A program made the position numbers and the translations under genes. Below are positions 3,297 to 53,965 of a stretch of 64,000 nucleotides of DNA, piece after piece; the first letter of the stretch is position 1, and each line of letters starts with the position of its first letter. This DNA comes from a virus. Where the stretch lies: positions 1 through 64,000 of the IMG/VR virus record IMGVR_UViG_3300025093_000015, one strand, 5' to 3'. The notes under the pieces are model-generated. The model made no database searches. It was not told where the DNA came from and worked only from the letters and a program-made list of their open reading frames with translations.

Positions 3297-3800
3297 ATGG
3301 CTAGATATAAAAGATATAGATACGGTGGTAAAAGAGTACCAGGAATGTATGCTCAGGATGGTAAAGAAACACCAATGAATCCAGTACCACCTCAGATGCA
3401 ATCAATGAATGAAAAACCTACTATTCAATCTTCTGGAGAAGCTCAGGCTTTACGTACACAAAATCAAATAGTTGAACAAACAATGTTAGAAAATGCCATG
3501 AGACAACAACAAATGGCAGCAATGATGCAACAGATGCAGATGCAAAATATGTTGTTACAACAGCAAAATCAATTACAACAGGTTCAAATTGAAAAAATGG
3601 ATTTGATTAATAGTGCTAGAACAACAAAGAAACCTGTAGGACCTGTAAATTCTCCTAAAAGAAAAGGTGGCTCAAATAGTAGAAAACCTAGAGTAAATGT
3701 AGTAATGTCACAAGGTCAAGGAACAACCTTTAGACATGGAGGAGGAATGGGAAAAAAAGGTAAGTGTTTGCCAGGAGGTAGATTCAGTAAAAGAAGGTAG
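3297..3800 (+). CDS. Gln/Met-rich basic protein, possible virion internal protein
   Basis: 167 aa; RYGG, AQDG and RHGG motifs; poly-Q tract. Confidence 0.6.
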   Translation: MARYKRYRYGGKRVPGMYAQDGKETPMNPVPPQMQSMNEKPTIQSSGEAQALRTQNQIVEQTMLENAMRQQQMAAMMQQMQMQNMLLQQQNQLQQVQIEKMDLINSARTTKKPVGPVNSPKRKGGSNSRKPRVNVVMSQGQGTTFRHGGGMGKKGKCLPGGRFSKRR

Positions 3801-3802
3801 TT

Positions 3803-4087
3803 ATGGCAAAAGAGTTAAATGAAGATACATCATTTAAGGTTAGTGTAAAAACTTTAATAGCTATTGCTATTGCTCTGTCAACAGTAATAGGCATGTGGTT
3901 TGCATTACAGGCAGATATAGAAGAAGCAAAAGAACTTCCTGTACCACCACCGCCAGATGTTACACGTATGGAGTTTGATATGAAAGATAAAAATATTAGA
4001 CTAACAATACAAAATACTGCAGATGATGTTGAAGAAATTAAAGATGACATCAAACGTATAGAAGAAAAAATAGATAAACTAAGATAA
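3803..4087 (+). CDS. Single-TM protein with Pro linker and coiled coil
   Basis: TM LIAIAIALSTVIGMWFAL, PVPPPP linker, C-terminal heptads. Confidence 0.7.
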   Translation: MAKELNEDTSFKVSVKTLIAIAIALSTVIGMWFALQADIEEAKELPVPPPPDVTRMEFDMKDKNIRLTIQNTADDVEEIKDDIKRIEEKIDKLR

Positions 4088-4112
4088 TAATTAACTTTAA
4101 ATTAAATAAAAA

Positions 4113-4511
4113 ATGGCAAGTGCAAATTTTAAATTAACGTTAGGTTCAACAGACTTAACTACTGACGCTCTGAATCTTTCAACAAGTAAAGATCTAGCTA
4201 GTTGTACATCAGGTGGTGTATTACGTATTGTACTTGATACAACTGCACATTCAAGTGCAACAGAACTTGTATCAGCTACAAAATATACAGAAGGAGCTTA
4301 TGTATGGATTCATAATCCAGCTACTCCTGTTTCATCTGGTAATGATAGAATTTATGTATCAGTTGATGAAACATCAGCAACACCAATCATACTAAAAGGT
4401 GGTGATTGGGCTTTAATACCTTGGGCAGGAACAACTAGAACCACTGATAAAAATATTTTAGCATGGGGTGCTTCTGCAGGTCTTATTGTAGAGTTTGGAA
4501 TATATCAATAA
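4113..4511 (+). CDS. Small beta-rich protein (possible virion decoration), paralog of 4536..4928
   Basis: Shares LTTxAxxL, GGxxR, YVxxxN, AxxPW and EF/YG features with the next ORF. Confidence 0.65.
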   Translation: MASANFKLTLGSTDLTTDALNLSTSKDLASCTSGGVLRIVLDTTAHSSATELVSATKYTEGAYVWIHNPATPVSSGNDRIYVSVDETSATPIILKGGDWALIPWAGTTRTTDKNILAWGASAGLIVEFGIYQ

Positions 4512-4929: not shown

Positions 4930-5286
4930 ATGAAAAATTCTGTTTGGAAGATATTTGGGATCTACCTTTTATTGCTAGTTTGTATTTTATTTTCACAGCA
5001 ATCATTTGGTCAAGTAACTGTTGTACAGTACAATGCAAATTGGAATGATGCAAACAAAGTAACTTGGCTAAAAAAATTATCTGATGTTGATAAAGTAAAA
5101 GATGTATGTATAGCTGAAGATCCTAAAGCCCAACAAAAACATGAAATAGTTGTAGTACCTACTATAATTATTTTTAAAGATGGTGAAGAGGTAAAAAGAT
5201 ACCAAGCAGATATATCATTTACAATGAAGGCTACTAGAGAAGAGATACAAGAATTTATTGACGAACTTATAATGAGTGATTTTTAA
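4930..5286 (+). CDS. Secreted thioredoxin-fold protein lacking CxxC
   Basis: Signal peptide ending SFG-Q; VVQYNANWN in place of WCxxC; VVPTIIIFKDGEEVKR cis-Pro segment. Confidence 0.7.
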   Translation: MKNSVWKIFGIYLLLLVCILFSQQSFGQVTVVQYNANWNDANKVTWLKKLSDVDKVKDVCIAEDPKAQQKHEIVVVPTIIIFKDGEEVKRYQADISFTMKATREEIQEFIDELIMSDF

Positions 5287-5287
5287 T

Positions 5288-7750
5288 ATGAAAAAACTTT
5301 TATTTCCACTATTAATATTATTATCTAGCTTTGCATTATCACAAAATTCTTATATTGTCATAGAAGCACAATATGATTCATGGGGACCTGCAGAATCTCA
5401 ATTTTATATTACAGATGCCCAAGGTGATACTGTGTATCATCATCAACCTACAGTGCAAAGTGAATATTTATTAGATACTTTATTTATAAACGCACAACCA
5501 CTTACGGCTATTTTATTAGATCAATATGGAGACGGATGGCAAGATACTGGTCAACAAGGTTATTTTAGAACATGGAATAATTGTCAAGATACAATAGTAG
5601 AATTTATATCTTCACCTACAAATTACTTTGCCACAGAAATAATAAACTTTAATCTGGGTCCATGTCTACCAAACGGACCTCCACCTCCACCATGCTTACC
5701 TGCAGTAGTTATAATTAATTTAGATCAGTATCAATCAGAAACGTCCTGGGAGATTACTGATACTTTAGGTTTTGTAGTAGCATCAGGTAGTGGTTATGGT
5801 TCACAACCAGATTATGGAACTGTTGTTGTTCCTGTATGTTTACCACAAACTGTATTAAATTTTACAATATTTGATTCTTATGGAGATGGTTTAAATGGTT
5901 CACTTTGGCAAGGTCAAGATGGATCTTATTTTGTTAAACAATGTGGTGATACGTTAGTATATGGTACAGATCCGGCTTTTGGTACAGACACAACACATGT
6001 CTTTACTATAAGTGAATGCCCTCCTATATATGGGTGTACAGATGATGATTATGTAGAATGGAATCCGTTTGCAGATACTGATGATGGTAGCTGTCAAACA
6101 TTAAAAGTATTTGGGTGCATTGATCCAGATGCATTTAATTATGATTCTACAGCTAACACAATGGACCTAGTTCCACAATGTGAGTTTACACTAATACTGC
6201 ATGATCTAATGGGTAATGGTTGGGTTGGTTCAAATTTAGAATTAGAGTTGCCTGATACGTCTTTTAATTTTACTCACACAGGTGGTTTCAATGATGAATA
6301 CCAATTTACAATAGATGCTCCGGATCCTGCTACGTTTAGGTTTCAAATATCTCCACAGGCTGCACTAACTACTATAGAGTGTGGGTTTACTTTACTTAAT
6401 CCAGAGGGTGATACATTAATTAGTGTTCAACCTCCATTTATACAACCTTTGTTTCCATATTCTTTTATTACTAATTGTGGTAATACGTGTATAGAAAAGA
6501 TATTTGGGTGTACAGATAGCCTAGCTTTAAACTATTATGATGAGGCTAATACAGATGATAGCTCTTGTTACTATGTGGCAGGATGTATGAACCCACTATA
6601 TTTAGAATATGATACAGCTGCTGATTATGATGATGGATCATGTGTAACTTTAATTGTTGCAGGATGCATGGACTCAACAGCTCTTAACTATGATCCGCTA
6701 GCAAACGTAGAGATACCAGGATCATGTGTAGCAATAGTAGAAGGATGTATGAATCCTTTAGCATTTAACTATAATCCTAATGCTAATGTTGATGACTCAA
6801 CATGTATACCAGTTGTTGATGGTTGTACAAATCCTATTGCACTTAATTATGATTCAACTGCTAATACAGATGATGGTTCTTGTGTATTACCAGTGCCAGG
6901 GTGTACAGACCCTAATGCATTTAATTACAATCCCCTAGCAAATGTAGATGACTCAAGTTGTATTGATATAGTATATGGTTGTACAGATGCTTCTGCTTTT
7001 AACTATAATCCTTTAGCCAATGTAGATAATGGTTCTTGTGAACCTTTTGTGTTTGGTTGTATGGATTCTACTATGTTTAATTTTAATCCTTTAGCAAATA
7101 CAGATGACAATAATTGCATTCCTTTTATTTATGGTTGTACTGATCCAAGCATGCTCAACTACAATCCACAAGCTAATACAGAAGACTTTAGTTGTATTGC
7201 TTACATTTATGGTTGTACTGATAGTACTGCCCTTAATTATGATCCGTTGGCTAATACTGACAACGGCACGTGTATTGAAGTGGTTACAGGGTGTATGGAT
7301 CAAGGTGCGTGGAACTATGAACCTTTAGCAAATGTTAATGACTCAGCTTCTTGTTTATATAGTGCTGGTTGTATTGATGGTCCAGGTAATCCTTATTGGT
7401 TAAATGATGGATGTTATGCATGGGTAATTGATGTAGATGTTTATTGCTGTGAAAATGCATGGGATGCATCATGTCAAACAATGTATGATTATTGTCAACT
7501 TGGATGGCCTACAAATATAGATGATTTATCAGTAATAGGTGTTGTAATATACCCTAACCCAACAACTGGAATTGTAAGAATATCTACAAGATTAGAAATA
7601 CAATTAAAGGTTTTAGATATGAGTGGAAAAACTATAATTGATGAGCTTAATCCACAAGTAATAGATTTATCAGACTATGCAGATGGTCTATATAATATTA
7701 TAGTAAATGTTAATGATAAACAATACTTCAATAAAATTATAAAACAATGA
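5288..7750 (+). CDS. Secreted Cys-repeat protein with type IX secretion (type A) C-terminal sorting domain
   Basis: Signal peptide MKKLLFPLLILLSSFALSQ (ATG 5288); three related domains with (D)xxGDG/GNGW; ~13 Cys repeats; C-terminal IYPNPTTG...IDLSDYADGLY...KIIKQ. Confidence 0.85.
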   Translation: MKKLLFPLLILLSSFALSQNSYIVIEAQYDSWGPAESQFYITDAQGDTVYHHQPTVQSEYLLDTLFINAQPLTAILLDQYGDGWQDTGQQGYFRTWNNCQDTIVEFISSPTNYFATEIINFNLGPCLPNGPPPPPCLPAVVIINLDQYQSETSWEITDTLGFVVASGSGYGSQPDYGTVVVPVCLPQTVLNFTIFDSYGDGLNGSLWQGQDGSYFVKQCGDTLVYGTDPAFGTDTTHVFTISECPPIYGCTDDDYVEWNPFADTDDGSCQTLKVFGCIDPDAFNYDSTANTMDLVPQCEFTLILHDLMGNGWVGSNLELELPDTSFNFTHTGGFNDEYQFTIDAPDPATFRFQISPQAALTTIECGFTLLNPEGDTLISVQPPFIQPLFPYSFITNCGNTCIEKIFGCTDSLALNYYDEANTDDSSCYYVAGCMNPLYLEYDTAADYDDGSCVTLIVAGCMDSTALNYDPLANVEIPGSCVAIVEGCMNPLAFNYNPNANVDDSTCIPVVDGCTNPIALNYDSTANTDDGSCVLPVPGCTDPNAFNYNPLANVDDSSCIDIVYGCTDASAFNYNPLANVDNGSCEPFVFGCMDSTMFNFNPLANTDDNNCIPFIYGCTDPSMLNYNPQANTEDFSCIAYIYGCTDSTALNYDPLANTDNGTCIEVVTGCMDQGAWNYEPLANVNDSASCLYSAGCIDGPGNPYWLNDGCYAWVIDVDVYCCENAWDASCQTMYDYCQLGWPTNIDDLSVIGVVIYPNPTTGIVRISTRLEIQLKVLDMSGKTIIDELNPQVIDLSDYADGLYNIIVNVNDKQYFNKIIKQ
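6500..7360 (+). repeat. 11 tandem ~26-aa repeats GC(T/M)(D/N)xxAxNYxPxANxDDxSC
   Basis: Counted in the translation; two more copies near 6030-6160; DNA-level copies are diverged. Confidence 0.85.
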
Positions 7751-37066: not shown

Positions 37067-37091
37067 AATAATCTATTTAATTAGTTAACTG

Positions 37092-37165
37092 TACACCCAG
37101 TAGGACTTGAACCTACAACCTACAGCTTAGAAGGCTGTTGCTCTATCCAATTGAGCTATGGGTGC
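37092..37165 (-). tRNA. tRNA-Arg(TCT)
   Basis: GCACCCA/TGGGTGT acceptor, TAGCTCAATTGGATAGAGC D-arm, ACAGC-CTTCTAA-GCTGT anticodon arm, GTAGG-TTCAAGT-CCTAC T-arm; CCA not encoded. Confidence 0.95.
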
Positions 37166-37279: not shown

Positions 37280-37882
37280 TCATATATGAGAAATATCTAC
37301 CATTATACGGTGACTGTCATAGCACTCATGCTCAGGATCAAGGTGTCTACCTTCCTTTACAAAAGCTTTAACTCTTTTGATAAGACCTTGATTGTCTTTT
37401 ATCATTTTGAGTTGTGTGTAACTATCCATAAAAGCTATACCAGGTTTACTAGTTTTAAGTTTAAAGTCAATACTATGACAACTTGCAAATAATTCACAAG
37501 TGTAATCATCCATATCAACATCACCAAACATAGTCTTAAAAGGTTTAACTTCTATTAGATAATCACTAATAGCTTGTTTGAAATACTTTGGTGTATTCCA
37601 AGTACCAAGATGAAAACATATCTCAGTCAAGTTATCTTTGGTCATGTATGTTTGTACACATACACCACCAAAGTAACTACAGACATATTCCAAATCACCG
37701 TTAACAACATCCATTCTTCTATGGATCTTGTTTATTTTGTTACAGTCAGTTTGAAATATCTTACGACTATGGTAAGAGGTAATGCACTCTGCATCCCTCT
37801 TCCATAGATTTTTCCAAAAGTTTAACAATTTGTTAATCACTTTCCACGGTTTTTTTGTGTCCAGAATTTCCATGTCTGCCAC
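37280..37882 (-). CDS. Hypothetical early protein
   Basis: 200 aa ORF. Confidence 0.65.
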   Translation of the reverse strand: MADMEILDTKKPWKVINKLLNFWKNLWKRDAECITSYHSRKIFQTDCNKINKIHRRMDVVNGDLEYVCSYFGGVCVQTYMTKDNLTEICFHLGTWNTPKYFKQAISDYLIEVKPFKTMFGDVDMDDYTCELFASCHSIDFKLKTSKPGIAFMDSYTQLKMIKDNQGLIKRVKAFVKEGRHLDPEHECYDSHRIMVDISHI

Positions 37883-38100
37883 TGGTTATACTTCTTTTTA
37901 ACATCAAACAACCACACTAATGATACAATTAAGTATACCCAAAACAATGTCATGAATATAGTTTTTGATGTATCAGGATGAGGTTGTAACCATTCAATCA
38001 ATAAGATTGAAGATAAACCACTTATTAAAGTGGCAAATACTGCTGTAATCCATGCAACAAGAATCTTTGCTGGTGGATTAAAATTTTTAAATCTGTTCAT
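37837..38100 (-). CDS. Two-TM membrane protein
   Basis: Two hydrophobic helices. Confidence 0.6.
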   Translation of the reverse strand: MNRFKNFNPPAKILVAWITAVFATLISGLSSILLIEWLQPHPDTSKTIFMTLFWVYLIVSLVWLFDVKKKYNQWQTWKFWTQKNRGK

Positions 38101-38249
38101 AGTCTAGATTTTTTAAAGTTATACGTGAGTTCAATGTCAAGAAAAGGTAATAACAATATAAAATCTATTGACTTACTTCTCTTTTGGTAGCCAAATCCTA
38201 CACCAATGAATGGTATAACACCTAGTCTACAGTTAAATTTCTTTTTCAT
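38097..38249 (-). CDS. Small hydrophobic protein (50 aa)
   Basis: Manually translated MKKKFNCRLGVIPFIGVGFGYQKR...; stop overlaps the next ATG. Confidence 0.5.
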   Translation of the reverse strand: MKKKFNCRLGVIPFIGVGFGYQKRSKSIDFILLLPFLDIELTYNFKKSRL

Positions 38250-38291
38250 AATAGTAATTTAATGGTTAATAATAAAGTTTGAGTTAATAAA

Positions 38292-38984
38292 TGATGAGTG
38301 ACACTAGTGCAGGTCTTGTTTTTATTTGGGCATTTGTATGGATTTCTCCATCTCCCTGTCCTCAGAGATTGCTACTCTGTTATGCTTCATTACACTAGCA
38401 GACTGTCACTCATCAAGTTTAAATTGCAAACCATCTTTAATCTTGCAAGAGTACGTCTATATTTTTCAATATATAAAGATGGTTCTAACCTTCACGATAA
38501 GGACTTACTATGGTATTACAGTAATGACCAACCCAATACTGCCTATTCAAATGATGGTGTATTATATTAAAGCAGTTTATCTTCTTGCTTAGGAATACGC
38601 TGTTGCCAATGTTATGAAATTGACTAATAGTACAGCCTTTCTATTTTTTAATATTGCGGATACATATATGCTCATCCTATAGAGAGAGAACATAAATATA
38701 ATATAGGCTATAACAACAAGTCTCTATCTATTACCGAATCTAACGGCTGAGTGGTCAAGAGGCCAATAGATGACTCTCACATCTTAAACCTTGTCATTAT
38801 AGCTATATTATATATTACTGTGATTAACAGTTGTAGTTGTGGATTAAAGTGGTAATATGTGGGAAATAAGATCTCACACACACAATTTAATGCACACAAT
38901 TAATTTTTTTGTCACTCAATTGTATTAAGTGTTAGTGTAACTGTGCATAGTAGTGTGGATGTAACGTAGCTATGCAGAGTTACA
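38292..38984 (-). ncRNA. Candidate structured non-coding RNA region (four long stems)
   Basis: Inverted repeats 38292-38415, 38429-38484, 38696-38813, 38936-38984; GAAA/GCAA tetraloops and G-U wobbles on the minus strand. Confidence 0.55.
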
Positions 38985-39003
38985 GCAAGTACTAAACAGA
39001 ATC

Positions 39004-39297
39004 TTAGATAGATTCTGCCCAGTACATACCAGTTGGTTCATCTGTTTCCTGGTCAAGGACCGGATTAGATGACAACTGGAATCCCTTAATCTCTTGGTTC
39101 TTCTTAAGACCAAGAGTGGATGGGTCAAGGGAATTACCTGATTCATCCATAAGGCATAGTAGACCGTAGGTCACGGAGCCTTGTTCTCTGTCATAGACAG
39201 TTACACCGTTGATAGTGGACTTTTTAGTCCCTAGCACGGCAGTTTTTACTATGATAGTATTATTTACTATCTTGTGGAAAAAAATTGACTTTGTCAT
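39004..39297 (-). CDS. Hypothetical protein, first gene of the minus block
   Basis: Likely start MTKSIFF at 39297 after an A-rich leader. Confidence 0.65.
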   Translation of the reverse strand: MTKSIFFHKIVNNTIIVKTAVLGTKKSTINGVTVYDREQGSVTYGLLCLMDESGNSLDPSTLGLKKNQEIKGFQLSSNPVLDQETDEPTGMYWAESI

Positions 39298-39429
39298 TTT
39301 TTTTGGTTTTAATTGATCCACACTTTGACATAGGGGGTGGATATTGCCCAATGATAAGACGGGGAGCTGATCAGTAAAACCTTTTCACAACTTAACACAT
39401 ACAAAATTTCCATAGGCCAAAAATTTTTA

Positions 39430-52330: not shown

Positions 52331-53965
52331 ATGGCAACTCCAGTATTAAATAATGGGATTTTCCTAAGAGATACAAACTACAAAGCTAGTTCTCATGTTG
52401 ATTCTTACCACTTAACAGCAATGTTAGGATCTGCAGAACCTATGGATATGGGTCCTGTTGATTTGTGGGCAATGACACAAAAGGTTGAAATGCCTTTGTA
52501 TCAGTTAGCTTCATTTGGTGGACAGAATACAATTATGGTTGACAATGCACGTGGTGAGTATAAATGGCAAACTCCTATTGCACAAGACCTTCCTTACTCT
52601 CTAGGTAAAATTGACGGTGTCACTGACGCTGATGGAACAGTTAGAGGTATAGATGGTAAAACTTTTAAAATTCTTTTAAGTAAGAGAGCATTTGGTCACG
52701 GTGATATTATTACTTATGACAAGTACAATGGTAAAGAACTTTACGTTACTGCGGATGATATTCTTCCTTCAGGTGACGGATTTGTTTATACTGTACAACT
52801 TGTAAACAATGATAACACTGCTGGTCTAGCTGACAAATACCTTAAGTCAGGAACTAAATTCTTTAGAAAAGGTTCTGCAAGAGGTGAGTACGGTGAAAGA
52901 TTTTCAGATATTCAAACAGGAACTGGTTTCAGAGAATTCTACAACTTTGTAGGAGGAGCTGAAGCACACGTTCACTATTCAGTTTCTTCAAGAGCAGACT
53001 TAATGCTTAAAGGAGGAATGAATGCTGACGGTTCTATTCCTGTAACTGAGATTTGGAGAACATTTGACCAAGACGTTGATCCTTCTGTATCTTCTTTAGA
53101 GAGCATGGTAGAGATCATGGGTGCTGATTACGTGAAGAGAGCATTTGATAATGGTTCATTATCTAGAACTTTCTTAACTAACTTAGAAGCAGCACACCTT
53201 AACAAAATTGCTAGTGACATTGAAACTTACTTAATGTGGGGTCACGGTGGTAGAGTTAGACAAGACGGTCCAGATGACATCAGAATGTCAGTTGGTCTTT
53301 GGAAGCAATTAGACAACTCTTACAAGAGAATCTATAACAAGTCTTCTTTCAGCTTAGATATGTTTAAAACTGAGCTTTACAACTTCTACCAAGGTAAAGT
53401 TGAATTAGAAGGACCAGATCCACAAAGAACATTAATTGTTCAGACTGGTATTGGTGGTATGAAGCTTGTTAATGATGCAATTGCTAAAGAAGCTGCAGGT
53501 CTAGGAACTGCTTATGTAACTAATACTGATCAAATTGGTATGGTAACTGGTAGTGGAATGGACTTAGGTTTTGGATATGCATTCACTTCTTATGTAATTC
53601 CTTTCTTGGCAAACGTAAGATTTGTATTGAATCCTGCATTTGATAACCTACATACTAATGACATTGAGAATCCACTTATTGATGGAAGACCATTAAGCTC
53701 ATACAGCTTTATTATCTTTGACATCACTGAGTCTGGTAATGACAATATTCACTTATTGAAATTATCTTGGGATAATGCATTAAAATGGTTCTACCAAAAT
53801 GGTACTATGGACTATATGGGAAGAACTCAAGGTTTTGCATCATCAGGTAACTTTAATGGATACCGTGTAATGATGACACAAACTATGCCTTCAGTATGGG
53901 TAAAAGACCCAACTAAGGTTCTTAAAATTGTAATGAAGAATCCAATAACAGGAGGATCATTCTAA
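52331..53965 (+). CDS. Major capsid protein, crAss-like
   Basis: 544 aa; EYKW, GLWKQL, TGIGG, VKDPT; high-expression codon usage; followed by a strong terminator. Confidence 0.88.
   Translation: MATPVLNNGIFLRDTNYKASSHVDSYHLTAMLGSAEPMDMGPVDLWAMTQKVEMPLYQLASFGGQNTIMVDNARGEYKWQTPIAQDLPYSLGKIDGVTDADGTVRGIDGKTFKILLSKRAFGHGDIITYDKYNGKELYVTADDILPSGDGFVYTVQLVNNDNTAGLADKYLKSGTKFFRKGSARGEYGERFSDIQTGTGFREFYNFVGGAEAHVHYSVSSRADLMLKGGMNADGSIPVTEIWRTFDQDVDPSVSSLESMVEIMGADYVKRAFDNGSLSRTFLTNLEAAHLNKIASDIETYLMWGHGGRVRQDGPDDIRMSVGLWKQLDNSYKRIYNKSSFSLDMFKTELYNFYQGKVELEGPDPQRTLIVQTGIGGMKLVNDAIAKEAAGLGTAYVTNTDQIGMVTGSGMDLGFGYAFTSYVIPFLANVRFVLNPAFDNLHTNDIENPLIDGRPLSSYSFIIFDITESGNDNIHLLKLSWDNALKWFYQNGTMDYMGRTQGFASSGNFNGYRVMMTQTMPSVWVKDPTKVLKIVMKNPITGGSF

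Follow-up and report, generated by a model that had tools for sequence, protein, structure and literature searches.

In the crAss-like Cellulophaga phage phi14:2, two long intergenic regions in the early part of the genome are transcribed above most genes, starting from the earliest time point (bioRxiv 10.1101/2020.03.07.982082). The passages of that report that deal with these stretches term them long non-coding RNAs and leave their function unexplained (bioRxiv 10.1101/2020.03.07.982082). The phi14:2 early long non-coding RNAs are the nearest documented case for the locus described here: both are gene-free stretches in the early region of crAss-like phages of marine Bacteroidota, which are the probable host in our case. 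However, the two loci share neither sequence similarity nor synteny. In addition, one of the two phi14:2 stretches, whose gap coordinates we took from the RefSeq table, is a tmRNA gene according to both ARAGORN and Rfam, whereas the DNA analyzed here contains no tmRNA.

Stem-loop-bounded units that shuffle in an early region, as they do here, have a counterpart in T4-type phages: the promoter/stem-loop (PeSL) cassettes that Arbiol et al. reportedly described in 2010, which are said to shuffle in the hyperplastic early region. In PeSL cassettes one repeated motif flanks ORFs, whereas here the leader and core motifs are single-copy and the units are non-coding. Integron cassettes carry attC hairpins with R-box-like ends. 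Like the units here, integron arrays run in one orientation, with variable content and order behind a conserved site, and attC sites are imperfect palindromes (~60 to 140 nt) whose stem is bulged and whose tip varies. In contrast to integrons, the locus has no integrase in any of five records, no R-box-like ends were seen at its junctions, and its units carry no genes. GOLLD and ROOL are large, ornate phage ncRNA candidates found near tRNA genes, and here too a tRNA-Arg gene lies 1.1 kb downstream; the locus differs in yielding no Rfam match up to an E value of 10 and in being a mosaic rather than one conserved fold. A full-text literature search returned no description of such module shuffling in crAss-like phages.

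The window, by which we mean the entire 64,000-nt stretch of DNA analyzed, is part of an 87.7-kb IMG/VR virus record. Because the ORF at 52331-53965 carries a Crassvirus major capsid domain, an 824-aa protein bears a C-terminal type-IX-secretion sorting domain, and the relatives come from TARA and other marine metagenomes, we conclude that the source is an uncultivated marine crAss-like phage whose host probably belongs to the Bacteroidota. Its genes include ones for a DnaB-like helicase and a Toprim/zinc-ribbon primase. Within a minus-strand gene block, 1.1 kb upstream of the tRNA gene, lies a 754-nt gene-free island (38250-39003) that contains the element studied here, designated E. Relatives were retrieved with the 115-aa ORF upstream of the island (39004-39351), which yielded 11 viral-contig and 24 metagenome-contig loci, some of them duplicates. 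BLAST comparison with these relatives (individual loci bear L numbers) revealed a frame of fixed order: block I, domain 1, block II, a variable stretch, an AU-rich leader, and a 50-aa ORF. In the window, the parts of this frame and the neighbor of E are as follows:

38794-38922, minus strand: conserved block I, with CCACA-type repeats, an AT-rich run, the motif TAATATATAATATAGCTAT and a sigma-70-like site (72-81% nucleotide identity in distant relatives).
38707-38803, minus strand: variable domain 1, with a long covarying closing stem (GCUAUA.../...UAUAGY), from fold comparison.
38644-38701, minus strand: conserved non-coding block II (TCTCTCTCTATAGGATRAG ... CCGCAAYATTAAAAA), from 27 relative loci including duplicates (20 aligned rows including the window).
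38421-38643, minus strand: module X, the upstream neighbor of E, with a three-way junction at 38429-38484 (96% identity to L004 over 226 nt, part of it common to L007).
38250-38286, minus strand: conserved AU-rich leader (AACTCAAAC...) of the first downstream ORF (~95-97% identity to L004, L005 and L022).
38097-38249, minus strand: 50-aa ORF, the first gene past the variable stretch, without a Pfam or PHROG family.

A promoter-like match in block I runs from 38824 to 38796, and the locus adjoins iteron-like repeats. The long closing stem of domain 1, with differing inner sequence, was present in ~12 of 19 folded nonredundant sequences. Block II is not an ORF, since its ATG is not conserved. 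Its resemblance to a T7-type promoter was considered and set aside; the block II motif, like those of block I and the leader, occurs once in the window. The leader is unpaired in every fold. PHROG and Pfam searches of the neighboring ORFs gave nothing useful, and a 121-aa nuclease close by is homologous to staphylococcal nuclease rather than to homing enzymes.

Element E itself consists of the following parts, which were read from the sequence and from RNAfold except for the outer limits, which were set by comparison with a second copy in the relative L022:

38287-38420, minus strand: module E, the whole block common to L022, made up of the closed fold at 38292-38415 plus ~5 nt on each side (97.8% identity over 134 nt to L022:1964-2097).
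38404-38415, minus strand: 5' arm of the perfect 12-bp closing stem, paired with 38292-38303.
38399-38403, minus strand: 5-nt bulge, GUCUG, separating the two stacked stems.
38391-38398, minus strand: 5' arm of the 8-bp second stem, with one G.U pair, paired with 38304-38311.
38363-38379, minus strand: hairpin CAGAG/CTCTG, a 5-bp stem with the 7-nt loop UAGCAAU.
38338-38351, minus strand: hairpin ATGGA/TCCAT, a 5-bp stem with a GAAA tetraloop.
38292-38303, minus strand: 3' arm of the 12-bp closing stem.

The 12-bp stem, the 5-nt bulge, the 8-bp stem and both hairpins had been proposed in an initial annotation made from the sequence alone; direct reading placed each of them where it had been claimed, and RNAfold returned the same architecture. 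The assignment of the wobble pair to the gene strand also held: the only non-Watson-Crick pair of the second stem reads as a G.U wobble on the minus strand but as C.A on the plus. Of the two GNRA tetraloops that had been proposed, the GAAA loop on AUGGA/UCCAU stood. When a GNRA loop is taken as a 4-nt loop directly closed by a Watson-Crick stem, the other is a 7-nt loop, UAGCAAU, that merely contains GCAA. The minus strand folded at -40.0 kcal/mol (z = -4.52), and none of 200 shuffled sequences was equally stable, so the fold survived the shuffling control against which the annotation had wished to see it measured. The plus strand reached -37.7 kcal/mol (z = -3.25; 1 of 200 shuffles equally stable), and both strands of E therefore fold significantly. 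Inverted repeats of 12 nt occur frequently in this AT-rich window, which has 31 such pairs, each at least 12 nt long and with its arms within 200 nt, so it is the combined fold, not the 12-bp repeat, that is unusual. The fold was the same within the whole 358-nt variable stretch and in the foreign context of L022. The GUCU and AGAC bases, for which a pseudoknot had been proposed, are identical in the copy of this window (WIN) and in that of L022. On the minus strand, the closing stem of E is followed by UUUAUU.

We assessed the distribution of E across the 14 nonredundant relatives for which the positions of both block II and the leader could be established. E was found in one of them, L022 (positions 1964-2097). 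L004 is the closest relative (98% protein identity); its flanks align with those of the window, but 348 nt of other sequence stand in the place of E; the whole records of five relatives lack E as well. In L022, 443 nt upstream and ~150 nt downstream of E are unrelated to its flanks in the window, and homology between the two copies ends ~5 nt beyond the closing stem on both sides. The boundaries are thus discrete, and sequencing run X1, which like the other runs consisted of contigs, has a contig joint at 38286/38287 that matches the E boundary. E is the last module before the leader in the window and is internal in L022. Because its neighbors differ, E is not tied to a single gene as a dedicated cis-regulator, for example a riboswitch, would be.

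Broader searches widened this picture little. A covariance model of E, run over 206,817 bases of window and relative loci from 27 sources, recovered only WIN and L022; a further match at 2732-2857 of the window (16.8 bits, E value 0.35) was noise. Exact and gapped E patterns found nothing in the viral-contig collection, the first two of these patterns being blind to the L022 stem variant, and the leader pattern found only two already-known relatives there. A phage collection searched with 38 kb-region sequence (37800-39000) gave no match. In a scan of genome contigs, the two 11-nt arms of E occurred in 25 stretches, against ~1 expected by rough arithmetic, in Acidobacteriota, Chloroflexota and similar MAGs. 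We rejected these stretches as relatives of E: they are inverted arrays of GTGAY-type heptamers, in which the arm occurs by coincidence, and share nothing with its interior. The homologs in related phages to which the annotation had pointed thus came down to near-identical copies, with E absent from 13 of the 14 relatives spanning the site. On this sampling, E is not a conserved motif of the lineage. The proposal of an undescribed ncRNA or cis-regulatory motif stands as far as E is an unusually stable, non-coding, multi-branched fold on the gene strand; conservation in the lineage and a fixed neighbor to regulate are not supported.

The variable stretch as a whole ranges from 7 nt in L041, which has no modules at all, to ~730 nt in L022. 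All-against-all comparison resolved it into discrete blocks of ~70 to 130 nt that recur in varied combinations and order. L004 and L013, with flanks of ~70% identity, have module A in common at 94% identity, and L022 and L036 have module F in common at 95%. L019 and L006 carry a 72-nt block of 100% identity that lies on opposite sides of module C in the two, so that the order is swapped. Modules are thus 94-100% identical between phages with ~70% identical flanks. Every module match between loci is in the same orientation, as are both E copies with known flanks, and in four whole records module copies occur at this locus only. Phage_integrase and Y1_Tnp were each found in none of five records. 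Block boundaries coincide with stem feet, and the 3' end of E has a 7-nt microhomology, CATTTAT, with the beginning of the leader in its ancestral form, represented by L013; these two features suggest, by inference, that shuffling proceeds by copy-choice switching at hairpins. Taken together, these comparisons indicate that the stretch is a set of self-folding modules, shuffled in content and order and polymorphic for presence and absence, between a conserved core and a conserved leader. The shuffling at the level of the locus is of more interest than E, which is an orphan of narrow distribution.

The few substitutions known in E preserve or strengthen its pairing, and sibling modules behave alike. 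The L022 copy of E departs from that of the window at two positions, both terminal in the second stem: one substitution converts G.U to G-C, and the second creates an additional A-U pair. Sequencing run X2 contains a second variant of E over 38275-38389, with five differences, four of which are listed. At 38338 and 38351, which pair to close the GAAA hairpin, a joint compensatory change replaces A-T with G-C; 38330 and 38359 are opposed unpaired bases of one internal loop. None of the six known changes in E breaks a predicted pair, a small sample drawn from three near-identical variants; with only three sequence variants, covariation support for E is anecdotal. Double-sided compensatory changes affect 2 of 20 pairs in module C and 3 of 24 pairs in module F, the latter with a sense-strand G.U intermediate in addition, and module X shows one compensatory change relative to L004 (U-A to C-G).

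We compared E with known classes of structured RNA and mobile DNA. Against Rfam 15, only a tRNA in the window passed the gathering threshold. This result agrees with the initial failure to match E to a riboswitch or ribozyme. With E values up to 10, positions 37900-39000 returned only noise, the best hit over E being sR4 at 19.4 bits against a cut-off of 50. ARAGORN made a single call in the window, tRNA-Arg(UCU) at 37091-37165, and found no tRNA or tmRNA in E; in the relative loci, the downstream tRNA-Arg gene was likewise the only tRNA call. E is not a conserved riboswitch or ribozyme. The UGAUGAG of its 5' arm recalls the hammerhead core and the C box. In a hammerhead, CUGAUGA and GAAA are unpaired at a three-way junction, whereas UGAUGAG in E is fully paired inside the 12-bp Watson-Crick stem, and no hammerhead match appeared in Rfam up to an E value of 10. 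A Y RNA or YrlA was rejected on the lack of a TROVE protein in the window's own record (76% complete) and of an Rfam match. The perfect 12-bp terminal inverted repeat is a trait of MITEs; against a MITE, E occurs once in its own record and nowhere else in the records of five relatives, and Y1_Tnp is found in none of five records. The array of one orientation behind a conserved site recalls an integron, yet Phage_integrase was found in none of the five records, four of them 94-100% complete, although the host may supply such an enzyme. For a retron msr/msd, RVT_1 was lacking in the window's own record, and the downstream ORFs have no RT domain. On the gene strand, no ORF crosses E under table 11, nor does recoding of TAG, TGA or TAA open one, and a 90-aa ORF on the plus strand has no PHROG family. 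That E is a known class (riboswitch, ribozyme, tRNA-, tmRNA- or Y-RNA-like molecule, MITE, retron RNA or attC) or a coding sequence is, on these grounds, very improbable. Complementarity of E to targets in the phage genome was at chance level (best 12-mer, E value ~0.5).

Evidence on the strand and on the molecule, RNA or DNA, came from several sources. Coverage by two RNA runs, as contigs at a depth of ~2-5, comprises 38796-38969 (block I), some of the coding sequence close by, and the tRNA; E is uncovered, so they speak neither for its transcription nor for its silence. In 9 of 11 variable regions the better fold is that of the sense strand, and internal G.U versus A.C counts in these regions (51:4 for sense, 41:10 for antisense) likewise lean toward RNA, although the counts are not independent because loci share modules. 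For the whole variable region of the window, the antisense strand folds slightly better (-83.8 versus -82.8 for the sense strand). The folding strand bias is therefore weak. Nor can the G.U/G.T bias separate RNA from single-stranded DNA, because, judging from the skew, a fork that departs from block I would have the minus strand as its lagging-strand template as well. Over the record, cumulative GC skew reaches its minimum at ~38 kb, at the locus, and two relatives have local turning points there; this turn is confounded, as it coincides with a switch in gene orientation. A terminator scan found four distinct sense and seven distinct antisense sites in the variable regions, a count that does not tell the strands apart. 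The only canonical one is a sense-strand intrinsic terminator in L022, ~115 nt past E and just before the leader. At E itself, another terminator scan found no minus-strand site and only UUUAUU follows the closing stem, so that we rejected E as an intrinsic terminator.

We tentatively favor the reading that E is a portable accessory RNA module that folds on its own, one cassette among many interchangeable ones in an early leader; the early RNAs of phi14:2 serve as a precedent. The cassettes would occupy the hypervariable, untranslated stretch that separates the core (block I, domain 1 and block II) from the leader that precedes the first gene in the leftward early/replication block. Read-through from the core would transcribe E on the minus strand, and the interrupted closing helix of E, ~21 bp (12 bp, bulge, 8-9 bp), would allow it to fold independently of its neighbors. 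This helix, as predicted, has a geometry that fits an RNase III substrate; it would probably be cut by a double-strand-specific RNase, which may release a stable RNA of ~125 nt whose junction and loops could bind a host or phage factor in trans. E would be dispensable and horizontally exchanged, like the accessory ("moron") genes of early regions. A further proposal is that the locus is a recombinase-free, integron-like site, behind a conserved core near the origin, that swaps RNA "morons," made at the very start of infection and acting in trans as decoys or sponges for host defense or RNA-binding factors, with E as one cassette present in two genomes; we regard this as quite doubtful.

The same observations can be read in other ways. 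E might be a passive RNA hairpin that acts in cis to insulate, stabilize, process or weakly terminate the early leader, and be tolerated as long as the leader, AU-rich and lacking a Shine-Dalgarno sequence, stays single-stranded. The position of E in the window, last before the leader with UUUAUU after its closing stem, is consistent with this, as are the last modules of other relatives, which are a long stem with a U-rich run or, in L022, the canonical terminator. The leader is indeed unpaired throughout, and the modules are dispensable, L041 having none. However, E is internal in L022, so termination is not its conserved role; the terminator scans detected no minus-strand site at E and only one convincing sense-strand terminator in the 14 loci; and a passive role leaves unexplained why modules are 94-100% identical across flanks of ~70% identity. 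We consider a passive cis role unlikely. It is likewise unlikely that E has no function, being a selfish or neutral by-product of a recombination hot spot, where copy-choice at hairpin feet between coinfecting phages would let only self-folding inserts survive. The block boundaries at stem feet, the CATTTAT microhomology, the presence of E in one of 14 relatives, and the absence of Phage_integrase and Y1_Tnp from five records and of RVT_1 from the one examined all point in this direction. Against it, compensatory changes in E, in modules C, F and X, and in domain 1 imply that structure is maintained after acquisition, and high module identity across diverged phages suggests spread, not decay.

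Alternatively, E might act as DNA, as a hairpin on the lagging-strand template beside an origin, for example as a primase or primosome entry signal or a stall or DNA-entry structure; primosome entry signals of the G4 or ssi type and DNA-entry structures are the comparisons for such a role. The GC-skew minimum at the locus, with turning points in two relatives, the CCACA-type repeats and AT-rich run of block I, retained at 72-81% identity in distant relatives, and the phage's own DnaB-like helicase and Toprim/zinc-ribbon primase are in line with a nearby origin, and both strands of E fold significantly. However, a number of modules that varies from zero in L041 to several fits a replication signal poorly, the L022 array contains a canonical terminator, which is a strand-specific RNA signal, and the skew turn is confounded by the switch in gene orientation. 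We therefore judge a role as DNA to be rather improbable.

For the discovery of RNA motifs, E holds a caution: a strikingly stable fold can be an optional cassette and not a conserved regulator. If the favored reading of E as an accessory RNA module is true, the locus would provide a concrete set of ~100-nt modules for testing. Accessory regions behind early promoters hold fast-evolving counter-defense and host-takeover genes. If the same logic covers non-coding RNA cassettes in abundant marine phages, there would be an RNA layer in the arms race between phage and host.

The variable stretch holding the cassettes, interchangeable self-folding non-coding modules, is preceded on the minus strand by a non-coding core whose nucleotide sequence is better conserved than the neighbouring protein.

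38644-38922, minus strand: conserved non-coding core upstream of the variable stretch

In order, this core comprises the motif TAATATATAATATAGCTAT, a covarying stem-closed domain, and then TCTCTCTCTATAGGATRAG...CCGCAAYATTAAAAA. Its CTCTATAGG part is reminiscent of T7-type promoters but occurs only once. Single 151-nt contigs, at a depth of about 2, cover block I, the first block in minus-strand order, at 38796-38969 in runs X23 and X24, which belong to two different metatranscriptome studies. These contigs, which end near the start of domain 1, the next element, could be DNA carry-over. At about 38794-38990, where gene orientation switches, there are CCACA-type repeats together with an AT-rich run; they coincide with the cumulative GC-skew minimum of the whole record, at about 38 kb. 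We consider this site a candidate replication origin, with the skew signal being confounded by gene orientation.

Downstream of the core, the whole cassette array is dispensable, since in one relative (L041, about 3731-3745) block II, the last conserved block of the core, abuts the leader that precedes the 50-aa open reading frame, about 7 nt being all that separates the two. The variable stretch of another relative (L010, about 5180-5225) carries a tRNA T-arm-like GAGGTTCGAGTCCTC with an acceptor-like stem closing it. Neither ARAGORN nor Rfam detected a tRNA there, and the element, lying among the cassettes, may be what remains of a tRNA or a mimic of one.

In Cellulophaga phage phi14:2 (NC_021806), ARAGORN called a tmRNA at 4031-4500 with the tag GSSVQKLAMVA; the Rfam tmRNA score there was 46 bits, slightly below the cut-off of 47. 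The site falls within the gene-free g005-g006 gap, for which the RefSeq feature table lists no RNA feature. A preprint describes this gap as a long non-coding RNA that is strongly transcribed and has no known function (bioRxiv 10.1101/2020.03.07.982082).

Metagenome-assembled genome (MAG) contigs from Acidobacteriota, Chloroflexota and others (L062-L086) carry, at several sites per genome, a GTGAY-type heptamer repeat in inverted arrays with spacers of about 60-100 nt between them. These contigs were rejected as relatives of the folded module in the variable stretch, having matched only because two repeat units equal its stem arm.

One phage protein bears on the host.

5276-7750, plus strand: 824-aa phage protein with a C-terminal Por_Secre_tail (type IX secretion sorting) domain

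Its presence suggests that the host belongs to the Bacteroidota, and the phage may use the host secretion route.
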